Under the pieces are notes generated by a model. The model worked only from the letters and a program-made list of their open reading frames with translations, was not told the DNA's origin and made no database searches. Both the position numbers and the translations under genes were made by a program. Positions 28,465 through 43,993 of a stretch of DNA of 64,000 nt are shown here, piece after piece; within the stretch, counting starts at the first letter, position 1; every line of letters starts with the position of its first letter. Source of the stretch: Escherichia phage FFH2; sequence record KJ190158; one strand, written 5' to 3'.

Positions 28465-28488
28465 CAAAATATCAAATTTAAGACACCT

Positions 28489-28515
28489 AGGACGCTCTGT
28501 GGCGTCCTTTTCTTT
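28489..28515 (+). terminator. rho-independent terminator
   Basis: AGGACGC-tctgtg-GCGTCCT followed by TTTTCTTT. Confidence 0.75.
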
Positions 28516-28738
28516 ATCTGGTGCACGATTGCATACCTTGGGTAGTTAATCTCATTACAGAGCGTTTAAGAGCTCCCTACAAACAACTCCATATTTCGAG
28601 CGTAGCGAGAACGCACGTCCGTTTTGACCCAAATCACCATACGCTCGGATTTTAACCAAACCCTCGCGGCGTTTCTGTGGACACATTACCGATCCAGTGA
28701 TAGTATCCACACATAGTTTGTAGAATATGGAGTACACA

Positions 28739-28828
28739 ATGAGAACATTGTCCGAAGTTTTAGTGGTGATCCTGATGATCATTACGTCCATAGCGGCTGT
28801 TGCCGGAATACTCACGGGTGGAACATGA
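28739..28828 (+). CDS. hydrophobic micro-protein (29 aa)
   Basis: MRTLSEVLVVILMIITSIAAVAGILTGGT. The stop overlaps the next start (ATGA). Below the ORF-track cutoff. Confidence 0.4.
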   Translation: MRTLSEVLVVILMIITSIAAVAGILTGGT

Positions 28829-29037
28829 TCAACACACATGCATCTGAAGAGACATCCGAAGGAGTTACCATCTGTCCCTTGGCTGAGCCAGTGAAAGAGG
28901 AAAACTTCGATTCTGAAGATTATCCATCTCCGTCCCAGGTAGATCCTGAGGCTGATGACCTAACGTGGGAAGACATCGTAGATATCTGGTTCTCTATTAT
29001 GCCTGAGCACGAAGAGTTCAGGGGTGGTAGACTATGA
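28825..29037 (+). CDS. hypothetical very acidic protein (70 aa)
   Basis: Rich in D and E (EENFDSEDYPSPSQVDPEADDLTWEDIVD). Confidence 0.5.
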   Translation: MINTHASEETSEGVTICPLAEPVKEENFDSEDYPSPSQVDPEADDLTWEDIVDIWFSIMPEHEEFRGGRL

Positions 29038-29156
29038 AGCACCGAGCCCACACAGGTTCCTCATACTAAAGCATGGCCTGAAGAGGCAAACGTGCATAAT
29101 TCCTGCGCATTTGGACGTATAATCCTGTTCACACTCTCATTTCCAGAGGAGATTTT

Positions 29157-29372
29157 ATGAAGATAGAAATATTTGGTGGAGCTGACAACACTCGTGGCCT
29201 GATTTACCTTGAATTTGATGAATCATACCTGCCAGAGGTGTTAAATATAGACTCTGTTGCTGAGGCTTTGGGAGTAAACCCTAAAGAACTCCACTCTTGT
29301 GCTGAGATCGATGGTTGGGAAGAGACCATGAACATTGATTTCAGTGAAGTAGAGGATGAACCGCTGGACTGA
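29157..29372 (+). CDS. hypothetical acidic protein, last plus-strand gene
   Basis: MKIEIFGG...EVEDEPLD with an AGAGGAGA SD. Confidence 0.55.
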   Translation: MKIEIFGGADNTRGLIYLEFDESYLPEVLNIDSVAEALGVNPKELHSCAEIDGWEETMNIDFSEVEDEPLD

Positions 29373-29499
29373 CACACAATTAGCTGCCCGGCTAAAGTGC
29401 TGGAAGCACCTATAACACATCTTTCAACTAAATTTCCTACCACCACAATCACTTACCTCCCACACATGACTGTTTGCTTGTTTAGTGAGCAGTCATGCC

Positions 29500-29527
29500 T
29501 TGACATTCTTGCCTATCCTGATAAAAT
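29500..29527 (+). promoter_or_regulatory. sigma70-like promoter firing into the ORF-free region
   Basis: TTGACA-16 nt-TAAAAT, just after a CATGACTG...CAGTCATG hairpin (29465-29497). There is no ORF downstream for about 2.3 kb. Confidence 0.5.
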
Positions 29528-30842
29528 TAAGTTCTTCTCTTTTCTTTTACCGAGTAATTCGGGTTTTCTGTTCTCTTCGGTTTGAAGGGGTATAGAGATA
29601 CACCTGAGTGAACAGGGTGAACAACCGAACATTTGGCTATGGCATTAGCATGGCGAAGCGGACGGGTGACGAAAGAGGGGCCGGAGGACACCAGTCACTG
29701 CCATATGATATATGGGTGATAACCTGAAGAGTCTGAATAAGTGTTTAAGTACCAGTCAGAGGAAAAGGTGAATGGTAGCCGAAGGGGGAGGGGGGTTTCT
29801 TGTATCTTTAATTTGTATATTATGTATACACTTGTAAACCAATCTCATCTGAATTTGTTTACCACACAAAGTGGATAGGGACAAATATTACCTATTAAAC
29901 TTGAATTATTTATAGAAATACCACAACACCACTTAAGTCTTTGATTTTACACACAAATCCTACAGATATTCACCCTCCATATTTAACATACCTGTAACAT
30001 ATTCCATACCCTACCTGACCGATCAATTCACCCAACTACATCCCCATATTTTCCCTGTCTGTACTACCCCTGCCCCGCCGGGAGTCCCGTCATATCTGGC
30101 TTTCCAGCAAATATCACACCCACAAATATCATTGCCTGAAGAGGGTTTCATCCCATAATACATGCCTTACCTGAAGAGCGCTTCATACACCACGTAAATT
30201 TTTTAATTGACCCCCTCCCCGCCGCCGGAGAGGTTGGCTTTTCCCACACAGACCTGAAGAGTCAGCCAGAAATATCTGAACAGGTCCAGCTATGCCACGA
30301 TTTTGTGCTTGTCCTACAGGAGTGCCTCCCTGTCAGGAGCCGGTAGCGACTGGAGTGCTGCCAGGCGGACGAAATGGGAATCATTCTCATTCTTATAACA
30401 ATTCTCAAATATCGAGGCAGTGAGGCAAATTAATAGGTGAGGCCGTTCACACAATGGCACAACATTTGCAACCTATCTTGTGGGAGTGAATGAGAATACC
30501 TATCATTGTGAGAATAGTTATCATTACGGGCAATTTAACATAATACCCATTATGCGCACCACTGGCGATCCATACAGGGATTGATAACATGGGTTACTGT
30601 TTACACACATAACAATTATATTTCTTACTATTTGTGTGGGATATAGTTAGCAGCCGATAGATTAGATATTGACCTGTAGACTTCCAACCGTCCAGACGTC
30701 TAAACGCCCACACAACAAGGGTTATACATACACAACTGAATGTAAACAGGGCCGCAAAAATGCTACCATACAAGCTTGTAAATTTTTCATGCAGCACTTG
30801 ACAAAGAGGAGGAAAACTTGTCTGACACTTTAGACACAATAG

Positions 30843-31168
30843 TGACATAATATGACATAATGGTGACACTGAACATAATTGACATGCCTGACTGTTTACA
30901 TAGCTAACTATTCATACAGAAATGATAAGCCATGCCATTCGTTTGCATGATAATAATTAACTTGTTTACAATAGATGACATAATATAAAAGCAGGGCAAC
31001 TATTAGAAGATCTATAGTTGCCTTGCTTGTTATGTCATGATTAACTAAATACAAGGCAACTATGATCTGATTAATAGTTTGCAGACAAACTATCACGGGG
31101 GTGATGGTTACTGCTTTTATATTATGTCGCGACTCCGTCGCGCCATGCCATTCGTTTGCATAGTTGCC
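30843..31168. repeat. cluster of three short repeat families (TGACATAAT, GGCAACTAT half-sites, 20-mer GCCATGCCATTCGTTTGCAT)
   Basis: TGACATAAT at 30843, 30853 and 30976, plus inverted near-copies at 31029 and 31121. GGCAACTAT/ATAGTTGCC at 30995, 31014, 31055, 31074, 31086 and 31160. The 20-mer at 30929-30948 and 31142-31161. Confidence 0.8.
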
Positions 31169-31778
31169 TTATTGTTACAGATAAAATAATTGTATTGTTA
31201 ATTATTTCTTATCTTTCTCTTAGTCATCTAATGATTCCAGTCAGTATAGTAATGTACAGTAAACATTAGACGACTAAAGATTTCTCTGTTTATTATAACT
31301 TACCGTGACAATTTCAGGCTGTTTACGAAAAATGTTGACACCTGGGCCGATTTATGTTATGCAGTTTACACGAATAATTATTTTATGCAGGTATTGACTA
31401 TTCCGTTATTCTATGGTTGGAATAAATACTTAGCAGACTATAGAATGGTGAGCGTACGTAAATTCTGAGATCTGGCGGCTATAGTTATACTCGATTTTTC
31501 ACGTAGAACACGCTTTTGTTAGTGTGTAAGTGTATGACTTATAAAGATTTTTAGTTGTTGACAAGATATTGAAGATGTGCATCAGGTTAAATTTTGTGCA
31601 ATAGCGGCATTACGTGCAATTTTGAGAGAGAAAACGGGTAAAAATGGCCTTGCTATCACACAATGAAAAATTATGCAATAGTTATTTTACATGTATGTTT
31701 GTACAGTGTGTGGGATTGATGGCTAGTCAATTATTCCACTTGCCAGGCTGGGCCGTTTGTGGTAGGAGAAATACAGAC

Positions 31779-31806
31779 AAAAAGAAAGGGGCCTTTTAAA
31801 GCCCCT
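31779..31806 (-). terminator. rho-independent terminator ending the minus-strand small-gene block
   Basis: Minus strand: GGGGC-tttaaaag-GCCCC followed by TTTCTTTTT. Confidence 0.75.
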
Positions 31807-31824
31807 GATAGTTTAGTTAAGAAA

Positions 31825-41292: not shown

Positions 41293-41691
41293 TTATTCGT
41301 GGGCGCATGTCACAATGTGCTTTTTATACCCCAGGTGGGCAGCAAGTGCTGACAAAAACTCATCTTCATAGATCCAGCCGTTGGCAGTGATCCCCATAGC
41401 ATTTAACGCGCTTTCAAGTGCTGCATTGGCCTTATCATAACCGTGACCGCTCGCCTTGCCACCAGTATAACCGTACTTGTTGTTCTTGCTGTCGTGCATC
41501 CAAAAGACGCAATAATGAGTGTTACCGCTGGAGGCGGCATAGTACCGGATCTCCGCTACTTCGTGCAAATTATTATCATCGTCCAGGCCAACCAGATTAT
41601 AAGCCTTGTAAAATCCACGATCACGGCGGCAGTTCTTGACATCAGAAAAAGAGAAGTCGGCATTGTCAAAATTAAAGGTTGTGGTTTTCAT
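41293..41691 (-). CDS. hypothetical protein
   Basis: 132 aa, containing GGKASGHGYDKANAALESAL. A TTGACA-17-TATACT promoter lies upstream. Confidence 0.6.
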   Translation of the reverse strand: MKTTTFNFDNADFSFSDVKNCRRDRGFYKAYNLVGLDDDNNLHEVAEIRYYAASSGNTHYCVFWMHDSKNNKYGYTGGKASGHGYDKANAALESALNAMGITANGWIYEDEFLSALAAHLGYKKHIVTCAHE

Positions 41692-41755
41692 GATTTTATC
41701 CTCTTAGTGTCTTTTGTGATTTCAGTATATTTTGTGTCGGGGCGTATGTCAATAC

Positions 41756-41953
41756 TTATTTTTTATTAAACCAGTGATTGATCTGACCTTTTGTCAGGGC
41801 GCAACGATTAAGTTGGTGCCGGGTATAGCTCTGACCGCGACGGAATTTATAAAGGCCTTGCCCGTTGTTGATGGTTACGTCCACCTGGCAAACCATTTGA
41901 TCGGTGACCACCTGGCGAGCGTTGCGACGTACTTTGATTCCGTAGGCGTTCAT
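41756..41953 (-). CDS. small basic protein
   Basis: 65-aa ORF with an AGAGAGGATAAAA SD and a TTGACA-17-TATTCT promoter. Confidence 0.5.
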   Translation of the reverse strand: MNAYGIKVRRNARQVVTDQMVCQVDVTINNGQGLYKFRRGQSYTRHQLNRCALTKGQINHWFNKK

Positions 41954-42038
41954 GATTTTTTATCCTCTCTGTTAATTAGTGTGGTGTTGTTCACCTTGCG
42001 AGGATAAGAATAACAAGAACTGTCCGAGCTGTCAACTA

Positions 42039-42215
42039 TTAGTTAAAATTATTTTTTGGGCGGAATTCTCCAGCCGCCGCCCCTGCCAGGTTAACCATCA
42101 TTTTTTCGTACTCTTCTTTATATTCCAACGCTCCCGCTATAGCCTTTTCAACCAGGGCGATAGCCTCAGCGTCATTAATAGCTACATTTTCCAGGGGGAT
42201 CATATTACCTTTCAT
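42039..42215 (-). CDS. hypothetical protein (58 aa)
   Basis: MKGNMIPLENVAINDAEAIALVEKAIAGALEYKEEYEKMMVNLAGAAAGEFRPKNNFN with a strong SD (GAAGAGGAGG). Below the ORF-track cutoff. It is the first gene of the small-gene island. Confidence 0.55.
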   Translation of the reverse strand: MKGNMIPLENVAINDAEAIALVEKAIAGALEYKEEYEKMMVNLAGAAAGEFRPKNNFN

Positions 42216-42374
42216 TTTTGTACCTCCTCTTCAATTGTTACCTATCCTATAGCATAGGCCCACCAGGTTTACAAGCCTTCATTCTCTCCTACCTGGTCAG
42301 TTAGGTCCTGCCAGGCTGGCCCCACTAGGTTGCAGCGGTTAGTGCATCAGGTTAGAAAAATTTTTTGAAAAGTG

Positions 42375-42403
42375 TTGACAGCGGCCCCGCCAGGTGGCAC
42401 AAT
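42375..42403 (+). promoter_or_regulatory. plus-strand sigma70-like promoter P1 in the ORF-free island
   Basis: GAAAAATTTTTTGAAAA (UP-like), then TTGACA-17 nt-CACAAT. It is oriented opposite to all flanking genes. Confidence 0.5.
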
Positions 42404-42420
42404 ATACCTATCGAAAGGAC

Positions 42421-42493
42421 GGCAGGCACCGGTGACGGGGGAGACAACCACCGGGGATGGGCGCTGCATAAAATGAGAACGGTTATCATTATC
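42421..42493 (+). repeat. GC-rich structured element copy 1 plus Fur-box-like motif
   Basis: GGCAGGCACCGGTGACGGGGGAGACAACCACCGGGG... contains the CCGGTG/CACCGG stem. It is followed by GAGAACGGTTATCATTATC (42475-42493). Confidence 0.7.
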
Positions 42494-42518
42494 ATTTAAA
42501 AATTTATGCAAAAAATCC

Positions 42519-42546
42519 TTGCTTTCTTTGTCCTGTGTGATACTAT
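42519..42546 (+). promoter_or_regulatory. plus-strand sigma70-like promoter P2 (extended -10)
   Basis: TTGCTT-16 nt-TGaTACTAT. Confidence 0.45.
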
Positions 42547-42555
42547 AATAACAAG

Positions 42556-42629
42556 CCGGGGCAACAGGGGCCGGGAGACAATCACCGGGCCTGCCCGTTA
42601 TTCTGCAAACGAGAATGATTATCATTCAA
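42556..42629 (+). repeat. GC-rich structured element copy 2 plus Fur-box-like motif
   Basis: CCGGGGCAACAGGGGCCGGGAGACAATCACCGGGCCTGCCCG followed by GAGAATGATTATCATTCAA (42611-42629). Confidence 0.7.
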
Positions 42630-42742
42630 AATTCTAAATGAGAACTCCTCGCATTTAATAAATTTAATTAGCACGCTAATTACACTCCGTAACAATTTAC
42701 TATAAAATAGTATCCACTAAAATATTCCCATATAGAAATTTT

Positions 42743-43200
42743 AAAAATCCATTTCTGAAAACGAAAAATCGATTTCGTCCCTAAAAATTTCAGGCCTAGA
42801 TCCGGAACGATTTCCAGAAAATCCGATTCAGAAAACGAAAAACAGATCGAGTACTGAGAAATTTATCGAGAAAAATTTTCAGAAAATCCAAGCCCTGAAA
42901 TGAAAAGTAGATCGAGTACCTGGAAAGCTGCACCGCAACTTCAAGATAGTGGTTAGATTGTTACCATAGAAGGTCAAGGGTAAGTGGAGGAAGTTCTAGT
43001 AGAGGGAGGTTAGCATGTGTGGGAAATCTATAATGGTGGCCTGGAATATAGTGCAAACGATAGGATGAGTTATTCAGCTTGTCGCGCCTACTCTGAAAAA
43101 TCCATTTTAGTTTTCGATCCATTTTCTGATTTTCTAAGAATTTTAAAATATCCGGCCCGGTGAAATATCAAAAGGAGGAAATCCATTTTAGAAATCCCCC
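42743..43200. repeat. A/T-rich iteron field: three tandem ~65-73-nt units plus inverted copies of (A/G)GAAAATCC
   Basis: Units start at 42743, 42816 and 42881 (AGAAAATCCnnTTCnGAAAAYGAAAAnnAGATCGAGTAC...). Further AAATCCATTTT copies lie at 43095, 43177 and 43190, with inverted copies at 43115-43135. Confidence 0.75.
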
Positions 43201-43231
43201 TTATACTTGATATGCCAGGAATTTTCAAGTA

Positions 43232-43561
43232 TCAGCTGTCTTTGTTTTTAGGTTTGTACATGCGCAGAGGTATGGTCTTTGTAACATTCCATTTCCTCAA
43301 CCCTTCCCAGCTCCAGTTGTGGGCGTGATACCCGGTTATGCATGCACTGCTGGCGTGATCATAAGCATAAGAGAACGCTATGTGCACCAGGTGGGGCCAG
43401 TCCTTCCACGGCTGTGGACCGTAAGCCTTTCTCCAACACCGACACAAACTAATTGTCTCAAGAATAGGGAGAATAACAATTCCATATACCACCACCAGAA
43501 TGGTCAGTGCAATGATTGTCAGGAACACATACCCTGCAGTTGAAATGATGATCTCTGTCAT
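43232..43561 (-). CDS. membrane protein
   Basis: The N-terminal IIISTAGYVFLTIIALTILVVVYGIVILPIL is hydrophobic. Last gene of the 64-to-43-kb minus-strand block. Confidence 0.55.
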   Translation of the reverse strand: MTEIIISTAGYVFLTIIALTILVVVYGIVILPILETISLCRCWRKAYGPQPWKDWPHLVHIAFSYAYDHASSACITGYHAHNWSWEGLRKWNVTKTIPLRMYKPKNKDS

Positions 43562-43761
43562 TTGTCGTCCCCTTTCTTACGAATATAGATGTGAGAGCCT
43601 GCCTGTATATAAATTTCTCGACCATCCTCTGCAAAGATATGAAATACACGATCACCTTCGTACTCGATACGAGATATCTTCATAATGGTCTTTCCACCTG
43701 GGATACGGATCTCGTCCCCCACAGCGATGTTCCATGCAGATTTAAGCTTAAACATCTGCAC
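43558..43761 (-). CDS. hypothetical protein
   Basis: 67-aa ORF overlapping its neighbours by a few nt, consistent with translational coupling. Confidence 0.5.
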   Translation of the reverse strand: MQMFKLKSAWNIAVGDEIRIPGGKTIMKISRIEYEGDRVFHIFAEDGREIYIQAGSHIYIRKKGDDK

Positions 43762-43993
43762 CCTCCTTTGGGAACTTGAACTCTGGCATAGCCATATACG
43801 CTACAACAGGGTTGTGATCAAAGTAGAACTGACCGTTAATTATCCCGGTTTTGTCCACATAGTTACCAGATCCTGCAAGAACAACCTCGCAAGCTCCGAA
43901 ATCCACATTGCCATTCTCATCTGCCATGGCTACAATATACTTTCCTAGAGGCATGTTTTTAACGCCGTCTACAAATGTCCACCCTTTGTTCAT
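43748..43993 (-). CDS. hypothetical protein
   Basis: 81-aa ORF with an AGGAGA SD. Confidence 0.55.
   Translation of the reverse strand: MNKGWTFVDGVKNMPLGKYIVAMADENGNVDFGACEVVLAGSGNYVDKTGIINGQFYFDHNPVVAYMAMPEFKFPKEGADV

Follow-up and report, generated by a model that had tools for sequence, protein, structure and literature searches.

Escherichia phage FFH2 (sequence record KJ190158) carries, in two gene-free parts of the 64,000-nucleotide (nt) stretch analysed here (the window), a small family of motifs resembling the operator of the host iron regulator Fur, the Fur box being a textbook element. We put the probability at roughly 45% that these motifs are operators for host Fur, lying in a conserved noncoding module where they would block, in an iron-dependent manner, transcription near a putative replication origin. 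The narrower statement that they are Fur-type operators rather than A/T-rich look-alikes is supported by the sequence comparisons given below. The region around 42 kb is 95–97% identical to the rV5-like Vequintavirus myophages PDX, APECc02, JES2013 and rV5 of E. coli, and identity to rV5-like relatives reaches 99.7% over a 321-nt core. Judged by this identity, the window is that of an rV5-like Vequintavirus, a lytic E. coli phage; the host is thus E. coli, which makes the E. coli Fur consensus the proper yardstick.

Direct copies of the motif GAGAAY-N3-TATCATT lie at 42475, 42611, 30492 and 30510, all on the + strand and all exactly where the initial annotation had placed them. When the pattern GAGAAYNNNTATCATT was searched across the window with up to one mismatch permitted, it returned four matches, every one of them exact, against 0.21 expected, and none of 100 shuffles reached four. 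Credible genes are absent from two stretches of the window, at ~29.4–31.8 kb and 42.2–43.2 kb (the 30-kb and 42-kb islands), and the four matches are limited to these. An inverted fifth copy, GAGAATGATTCCCATT, exists as well; it is the reverse complement of 30373–30388, three positions away from the coordinates first reported for it (30376–30391). Direct counting against the consensus GATAATGATAATCATTATC reproduced the earlier figures of 15/19 for the copy at 42475 and 14/19 for that at 42611, and the latter holds a perfect 7-1-7 palindrome, GAATGAT-T-ATCATTC (42613–42627).

Scoring with a Fur matrix for the true host, a check that the initial annotation had proposed, placed the sites in the range of real ones and above shuffled sequence. 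The matrix, a palindromic 19-mer, was derived from 15 Fur-controlled promoter regions of E. coli K-12 MG1655 (fepA-fes, fepD-entS, fepB-entC, fhuA, cirA, fiu, fecI, tonB, exbB, fur, ryhB, feoA, sufA, fhuE and fhuF) by iterative refinement from a textbook-consensus seed. The K-12 training sites scored 10.2–22.2 bits (7.2–21.1 bits when left out one at a time), and the phage sites fall within that range: 20.15 bits at 42475, the highest score in the 64 kb, 17.03 at 42611 and 16.30 at 42605, followed in the 30-kb island by 14.91 at 30510, 13.66 at 30376 and 13.60 at 30370, with 30492 weak at 10.9 bits. Besides the dyad symmetry of 42613–42627, the matches form five groups that overlap at a 6-nt offset (42469/75/81, 42605/11, 30370/76, 30486/92 and 30504/10); overlapping sites that form clusters at offsets of 3 or 6 bp have been described as the signature of E. 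coli Fur sites mapped by footprinting (PMC2189734). The fecI Fur box of K-12 located by the matrix procedure (GAGAATGGTTATCATTA / GAGAATGGTTATCATTACA) fits the GAGAAYNNNTATCATT-type pattern exactly and differs from the 42475 box by one mismatch in 17 positions. Together with the fhuF, ryhB and fepD-entS operators, it belongs to the same sequence class as the phage boxes and shares their score range and 6-nt-shift overlap.

Fur matrices favour A/T-rich DNA, and resemblance by chance, without function, in A/T-rich noncoding sequence was weighed with shuffles that preserve dinucleotides, the islands being taken as 42214–43231 and 28465–31824. In the former, three matches of at least 16 bits were found against 0.007 expected, and none of 1000 shuffles reached its maximum of 20.2 bits; the latter had three scoring 13 bits or higher where 0.12 would be expected, and its best score, 14.9 bits, was attained in 2.5% of 1000 shuffles. 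Across the entire window, 12 matches scored at least 13 bits (2.0 expected), seven of them in the islands. The other five, at 13–15.6 bits, speak for chance in that they are near the chance level of 2.0; two were inspected and both are coding (22004, at an open reading frame (ORF) junction, and 40687, in a small ORF). The original statement that the motif is confined to the two islands therefore stands for the strong sites and not for such weaker matches. The other 75 kb of the near-identical JES2013 lacked the pattern and had just one match of 13 bits or higher, a gene-internal one of 13.9 bits; as nothing there reached 14.9 bits, the strong sites are limited to the two islands genome-wide. 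Given the outcome of the dinucleotide shuffles, the scores are not an effect of A/T-richness; moreover, different phage genera share one box cluster of the 42-kb island (B1 in Table 1) although the sequence around it has diverged. Chance is hardly credible as an explanation.

A symmetric T-to-G substitution distinguishes the box of two related phages, Erwinia phage Hena1 and Salmonella phage GE_vB_MG (TGAGAATgATTCTCA), from the 7-1-7 Fur motif TGATAATnATTATCA. In Bacillus, the specificities of Fur, PerR and Zur differ by changes of this sort. Because the change could signal another protein, the GAGAAT-type palindrome was examined in bacterial genomes. The 19-mer palindrome AATGAGAATSATTCTCATT occurs at no fewer than 120 bacterial loci, mostly in beta- and gamma-proteobacteria, where our own estimate, assuming uniform composition, would be ~4–10. 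Among the loci listed, 128 ORFs start within 350 nt of the palindrome and read away from it. They include 14 TonB-dependent receptors (Plug), six FeoB, six FTR1 iron permeases, five ZnuA-type proteins, five FUR proteins, four Fe3+-type binding proteins and three siderophore-binding proteins. Among 115 control ORFs at least 1.5 kb away at the same loci, these families were not among the top ones, and just operon mates such as FecCD appeared. Since the palindrome adjoins iron genes in a way that the control ORFs do not, we take the motif type to be a genuine Fur box, a variant that marks genes of bacterial Fur regulons.

These results bear on the alternative that a phage protein, or a different host protein, binds the GAGAAT-type palindrome and that its likeness to a Fur box is coincidence or mimicry. 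The symmetric variant in Hena1 and GE_vB_MG would fit such a protein, and a position next to iteron-like repeats (Table 1) would suit an origin-binding one. The same palindrome, however, adjoins iron-uptake genes and fur itself in bacteria, and the K-12 fecI box carries GAGAAT. No FUR-family protein was found in the Pfam results for the ORFs of the window or among the annotations of the rest of JES2013, and the unrelated viral contigs that share the motif (see below) are unlikely to have one common phage regulator. We consider this alternative quite unlikely. Of the three readings offered initially, namely Fur-responsive control of phage promoters, titration of host Fur, and an unrelated phage regulator, the last has thus become less likely, and the first two are not separable by computation.

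Conservation of the motif in related phages, also named at the outset as a check, was found for B1, which is kept across several phage genera. In BLAST searches with the 42-kb core, B1 plus ~40 nt on each side was the part shared, at 80–88% identity, with distant phages: Cronobacter phage GAP31 and GE_vB_MG (Seunavirus), Hena1 (Henunavirus), phages of Klebsiella, Raoultella, Enterobacter and Pectobacterium, E. coli Phapecoctavirus and Aeromonas phage 2L372X (Plateaulakevirus). B1 is the most conserved element of the 42-kb island, and the best-conserved island element in GAP31, Hena1, GE_vB_MG, ESCO13 and 2L372X as well. The common layout starts with a sigma-70 promoter (TTGCAA, TTGATC or TTGACC, a spacer of ~16–17 nt, and TATATT or TATTAT) and a start motif ACATRGCG, continues with a GC-rich leader containing the loop GAGACAAWCA, then yATTCtGCAAAy and the box GAGAATGATTMTCATTC, and ends with zero to three extra boxes ~29 nt apart, a further promoter 14–22 nt on, and iteron-like repeats. 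The promoter after the last box has a clearer TTGACA or TTGACT in the relatives. The number of boxes varies from one to four at the ~29-nt period (four in ESCO13, L053 and L088), and the distance from ACATRGCG to the first box is 59–62 nt in all relatives that have the start motif. Every relative has the double cluster at −6/0, with a best site of 15–21 bits by the E. coli matrix. Iteron-like repeats lie 3' of the boxes in GAP31, Hena1, GE_vB_MG, ESCO13 and the Aeromonas phage, with the themes 'gaaaatcc.ttt' and 'gatcgag'. In a viral contig of jumbo-phage size (347 kb, L027), positions 1255–1290 hold a box of 20.0 bits with the family-specific upstream flank CTGCCTGCTATTCC…AATGAGAATGATTATCATTC, by which the module may extend beyond Vequintavirinae-like phages.

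A coding explanation of this conservation was rejected. An ORF at 42347–42625 (− strand), recorded as a 'hypothetical protein' in many rV5-like records, spans two promoters and both box clusters of the island, and is very probably a false gene call on the sequence features that follow. Its ATG lies inside B1 and no Shine-Dalgarno sequence was visible on inspection; the repeat units that it spans are 136 nt apart and hence out of frame; the frame is shifted in L128; and GAP31 and Hena1 have no such annotation.

The features of the two islands are collected in Table 1. In the 42-kb island, P_A with box cluster A and P_B with B1 form a duplicated unit, 134–136 nt apart, that shares the leader core GGGAGACAAYCACCGGG; the two leaders make up a direct repeat (D7) of 94% identity. 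P_A, P_B and P_C all point rightward, antisense to the flanking leftward genes. P_B was missed by the promoter scan because its spacer exceeds 18 nt; its position is kept across genera while the spacer diverges. The degenerate box B2 corresponds in position to the second box of the relatives, 28–29 nt past the first, in the alignment with GAP31, the Aeromonas phage and ESCO13.

Table 1 Features of the 42-kb and 30-kb islands (positions in the window; matrix scores in bits in brackets after the start of each 19-mer)
Feature	Coordinates	Strand	Details
Promoter P_A	42375..42403	+	TTGACA, 17-nt spacer, CACAAT, TG upstream; scan 10/12 with extended −10
GC-rich leader A	42408..42468	+	holds GGGAGACAACCACCGGG, duplicate of the leader B core; fold −22.3 kcal/mol, z = −1.27
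Fur-box cluster A	42469..42499	.	overlapping 19-mers 42469 (13.3), 42475 (20.15), 42481 (12.7)
Promoter P_B	42519..42549	+	TTGCTT, 19-nt spacer, TATAAT; read from sequence; putative start near 42554
GC-rich leader B	42553..42604	+	loop GAGACAAWCA, closing stem GGGCA/TGCCC (family alignment); fold −27.4 kcal/mol, z = −2.23
Fur-box cluster B1	42605..42629	.	19-mers 42605 (16.3), 42611 (17.0); perfect palindrome GAATGATTATCATTC
Box B2, degenerate remnant	42641..42656	.	GAGAACTCCTCGCATT; <6 bits; 30 nt past B1 start
Candidate promoter(s) P_C	42679..42723	+	ATTACA-18-TAAAAT or TTTACT-16-TAAAAT (scan)
Three iteron-like direct repeats, ~62 nt	42726..42926	+	family D1, spaced 74 and 65 nt; putative origin or array of protein-binding sites
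Inverted-copy Fur-box cluster	30370..30394	.	19-mers 30370 (13.6), 30376 (13.7)
Tandem Fur boxes, 18 nt apart	30486..30528	.	30492 (10.9), 30510 (14.9); 6-nt partners 30486, 30504

The arrangement suggests how Fur could act in cis. With iron plentiful, Fe2+-Fur dimers would occupy each cluster, the 6-nt-shifted sites holding two or more of them. The boxes lie at ~+55 to +85 from one putative start and, in the relatives, 14–22 nt upstream of the next −35 element; bound Fur would accordingly be met by transcripts from the upstream promoter as a roadblock and would also occlude the A/T-rich region upstream of the next promoter. Rightward noncoding transcription into the iteron region would thereby be tied to host iron status. 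Such gating would suit a phage that needs iron enzymes for its nucleotide supply, namely NrdAB as well as NrdD and the radical-SAM activase of the latter. By Pfam, the window encodes NrdA, NrdB, a split NrdD, a radical-SAM activase, glutaredoxin and ThyX, which, on these assignments, amounts to an iron-hungry nucleotide supply. As a separate matter, the + strand arm has two distinct ORFs with matches to NrdD, the anaerobic ribonucleotide reductase. HNH endonuclease ORFs occur as well, and the combination suggests that nrdD was split by a homing-endonuclease insertion.

Several observations weigh against iron-dependent blocking by Fur as just set out. The boxes lie outside the −35 and −10 elements of the conserved rightward promoters, and the promoter candidates that do overlap boxes are either weak (TTGAGA-17-AATGAT, 30408 to 30380, leftward, over the inverted-copy cluster) or not conserved (TTGAAT-18-CAGAAT, − strand, over B1, rejected on account of a −10 that is not kept in relatives). 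This weakens the claim of a classical repressed promoter, not the claim of Fur binding. In this phage the spacer of P_B is 19 nt long, the rightward promoters have no ORF 3' of them, and the transcript starts near 42410 (P_A) and 42554 (P_B) are putative. The matrix was seeded with the textbook consensus, and the 30-kb boxes are conserved solely within Vequintavirus. The islands of this phage contain no DnaA boxes, which leaves the iteron-like repeats as the pointer to an origin; with no DnaA boxes there and no initiator gene identified, the iteron region remains, as an inference, the best origin candidate in this phage group.

We also considered that the box might work not as a DNA site but within a small RNA transcribed from P_A or P_B, in processing, stability or base-pairing, either through a hairpin yAUUCy...rGAAUg that uses the first half-box or through the palindromic box's own hairpin. 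All 13 sequences examined keep the five core pairs of the upstream hairpin, and its three variable positions change to G-U or U-G wobbles only, a pattern that works on the + strand alone; the conserved promoters 59–62 nt upstream of the box would likewise fit a transcript. Yet no pair changes on both sides, the control for the hairpin is uninformative because its 3' arm is invariant, and the alifold consensus, at −8.3 kcal/mol and with the covariation term positive, is weak. The consensus structure of the promoter-to-box transcript, from ten relatives, is weak too and has no compensatory pairs. Folding z-scores are ordinary on either strand, and those of the GC-rich segments before 42475, 42611 and 30373 are modest (−1.3, −2.2 and −1.9). 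Of the earlier statement that each box lies just 3' of a GC-rich structured segment, the GC-rich part holds for these three, and the structured part is weakly supported, with no covariation. No terminator-like site was found in 41500–43800, where the boxes on the + strand run into A-runs, and a U-tract terminator is accordingly missing from the 42-kb island. Rfam 15 gave no match at gathering score in the window, and permissive E-values gave chance-level matches only for both islands and the ESCO13 island. Lastly, the box is present without the upstream RNA in unrelated contigs and in the Aeromonas phage. We regard a role as an RNA element as highly improbable.

Some relatives have a different putative transcript. 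A conserved stretch of ~90 nt (…CGCCACCCCACGGCG…GGTGGATCGCCGGTAG…) lies behind the first promoter in L273 (770–880), L002 (1312–1420), L003 (1322–1425) and L005 (1325–1435), with 17 predicted pairs, two of them compensatory, in these four sequences, and no Rfam match. By inspection it was not seen in the island of the window, which has the duplicate of the P_B unit in its place.

Beyond these relatives, at least 120 viral contigs of great diversity (IMG/VR loci L006–L125, e.g. L035, L086, L050, L089 and L098) contain the exact 17-mer GAGAATGATTMTCATTC, a distribution among unrelated contigs that points to a shared host factor and not to a phage-specific regulator. Among the matches listed, the 17-mer lies outside long ORFs in 96 of 113 contigs, and 44 of 120 contigs have two to eight separate clusters, tandem or inverted, within 250 nt. 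The neighbours of the box in the 113 contigs included no iron genes and had no dominant shared function; they were small ORFs, a few small terminase subunits (the most frequent annotated neighbour) and excisionase-type helix-turn-helix proteins. In the same viral contigs listed, DnaA boxes (TTWTNCACA) were enriched 5.6-fold within 300 nt of the boxes relative to random windows taken from these contigs.

This distribution bears directly on whether the boxes act mainly in trans, as a sponge: a replicating genome at hundreds of copies per cell would soak up Fe-Fur and derepress the host Fur regulon (iron uptake, nrdHIEF), feeding the iron-dependent ribonucleotide reductases of the phage. Tandem arrays of up to four boxes that avoid core promoter elements, clustered copies in diverse contigs with neither iron genes nor a dominant family nearby, and the NrdA/B, NrdD and radical-SAM activase genes of the window would all agree with such a role. 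In the Fur titration assay (FURTA), multicopy Fur-box DNA derepresses the regulon in trans, a single Fur box on a multicopy plasmid being enough to derepress fhuF::lacZ (PMC3145626). A replicating phage genome with several clusters would be formally equivalent, although FURTA is an artificial high-copy plasmid system. There are just ~5 clusters per 137-kb genome, however, and by our own rough estimate their sufficiency, which depends on copy number and on how large the Fur pool is, is borderline; nor would a pure sponge need a fixed distance of 59–62 nt from the promoter start or strict synteny across several genera. The synteny and spacing, taken from sequence comparison, argue for a role in cis, and cis control and titration are not mutually exclusive. 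Action mainly as a sponge, the leading alternative, seems to us unlikely, if far from negligible.

In the 30-kb island, the N3 centre of the boxes varies among Vequintavirus relatives and the flanks GAGAA and TTATCATT are mostly kept; these boxes carry no separate conservation signal because the whole surrounding stretch is conserved. GenBank records of the phages nomo, magaca and naswa tag the tandem boxes as 'repeat_region'. We rejected a terminal repeat as the meaning of this tag, which simply covers the 34-bp tandem box pair. The rV5 genome paper labels the region matching this island 'non-coding' and does not mention Fur (PMC3606486).

As regards the wider layout, genes read rightward from 1 to ~29.4 kb and leftward from 64 to 31.8 kb; the 30-kb island is the point at which the two arms converge, and the 42-kb island sits within the leftward block of small early-type genes. 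GC skew switches sign at the 30-kb island, a change confounded with gene orientation. Where the leftward gene block ends, at 31787–31806, there is a strong hairpin, AGGGGCTTTAAAAGGCCCCT, that has T-runs on the − strand; it is the terminator that the rV5 paper expected, and did not find, between genes 163 and 164. The 9-mer CCTGAAGAG has nine copies in the window against 0.67 expected, a count that no shuffle reaches: 29077, 29723, 30135, 30170 and 30253 (+, 30-kb island), 4526, 5393 and 12825 (+), and 61362 (−). It resembles the hammerhead CUGANGA core, and Rfam showed no ribozyme at the 30-kb cluster. At 29500–29800 (+), ~250 nt of GC-rich sequence without an ORF come after a near-consensus sigma-70 promoter (TTGACA-16-TAAAAT, 11/12) and make up a candidate noncoding RNA with no Rfam match. 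A run of TGACATAAT-like repeats (gacataatatgacataatggtgacac…cataattgacat) occupies 30820–30990 (+), with promoter-like matches at 30822, 30852 and 30957. A scan of the window for transfer RNA and transfer-messenger RNA genes found none. The GenBank records MG065646, MG065647 and MG065654–MG065690, labelled 'Campylobacter phage' (host Campylobacter jejuni), are 96–99.7% identical to this phage; their host labels look wrong, or the preparations contaminated.

Chromosomal Fur operators overlap the −35 and −10 elements of iron-uptake promoters. The phage boxes, unlike these, sit in gene-free DNA in the interval that separates tandem promoters, and no iron gene goes with them. At E. coli ftnA, Fur bound 5' of the core promoter, in A/T-rich DNA, acts by displacing H-NS; P_B and P_C likewise have boxes on their upstream side, but ftnA is a case of activation of an iron-storage gene. 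Transcription-linked origins are another parallel, among them the T7 primary origin, with tandem promoters and an A/T-rich region, T4 oriF and oriG, and ColE1 RNA II: there, tandem promoters fire noncoding transcripts toward an A/T-rich or repeat region, as in the 42-kb island. We know of no Fur operators at any of these origins. The stx1 promoter is an instance of a Fur box on temperate-phage cargo. Another is the sitABCD operon of lambdoid coliphages (PMC6969025). Both are, like the boxes described here, host Fur boxes carried on phage DNA, but they control a prophage-expressed cargo gene within the host regulon, whereas here the setting is a virulent myophage, noncoding control regions and conservation over several genera. 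In the literature searched, neither rV5-like phages nor any other virulent ones were reported to carry Fur boxes; the phage-borne Fur boxes known from it are temperate-phage cargo, and a noncoding setting in a virulent phage is unusual.

Iron is the most restricted nutrient in the gut and at infection sites. If Fur truly binds these sites, a large group of broad-host-range coliphages of therapeutic relevance (rV5-like Vequintavirinae and Phapecoctavirus) would be wired to the iron status of their host; an iron-dependent burst size or latency would be predicted, and boxes that can be scrambled would offer a simple genetic handle. Arrays of the 17-mer could then serve as a general signature of iron-linked control regions or Fur sponges in uncultivated phages. 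The analysis also singles out the 42-kb island as the likeliest place for the replication origin, as yet unmapped, of this group of phages. More broadly, and as a doubtful proposition for the present, virulent phages of several genera and many uncultivated phages may use conserved host Fur operator arrays that lack an adjoining iron gene, either to read iron status (in origin-region transcription and replication) or to soak up Fur while their genomes multiply, so that host iron uptake would be redirected to supply phage ribonucleotide reductases; a host regulon would then be taken over by DNA sites alone, without an encoded protein.

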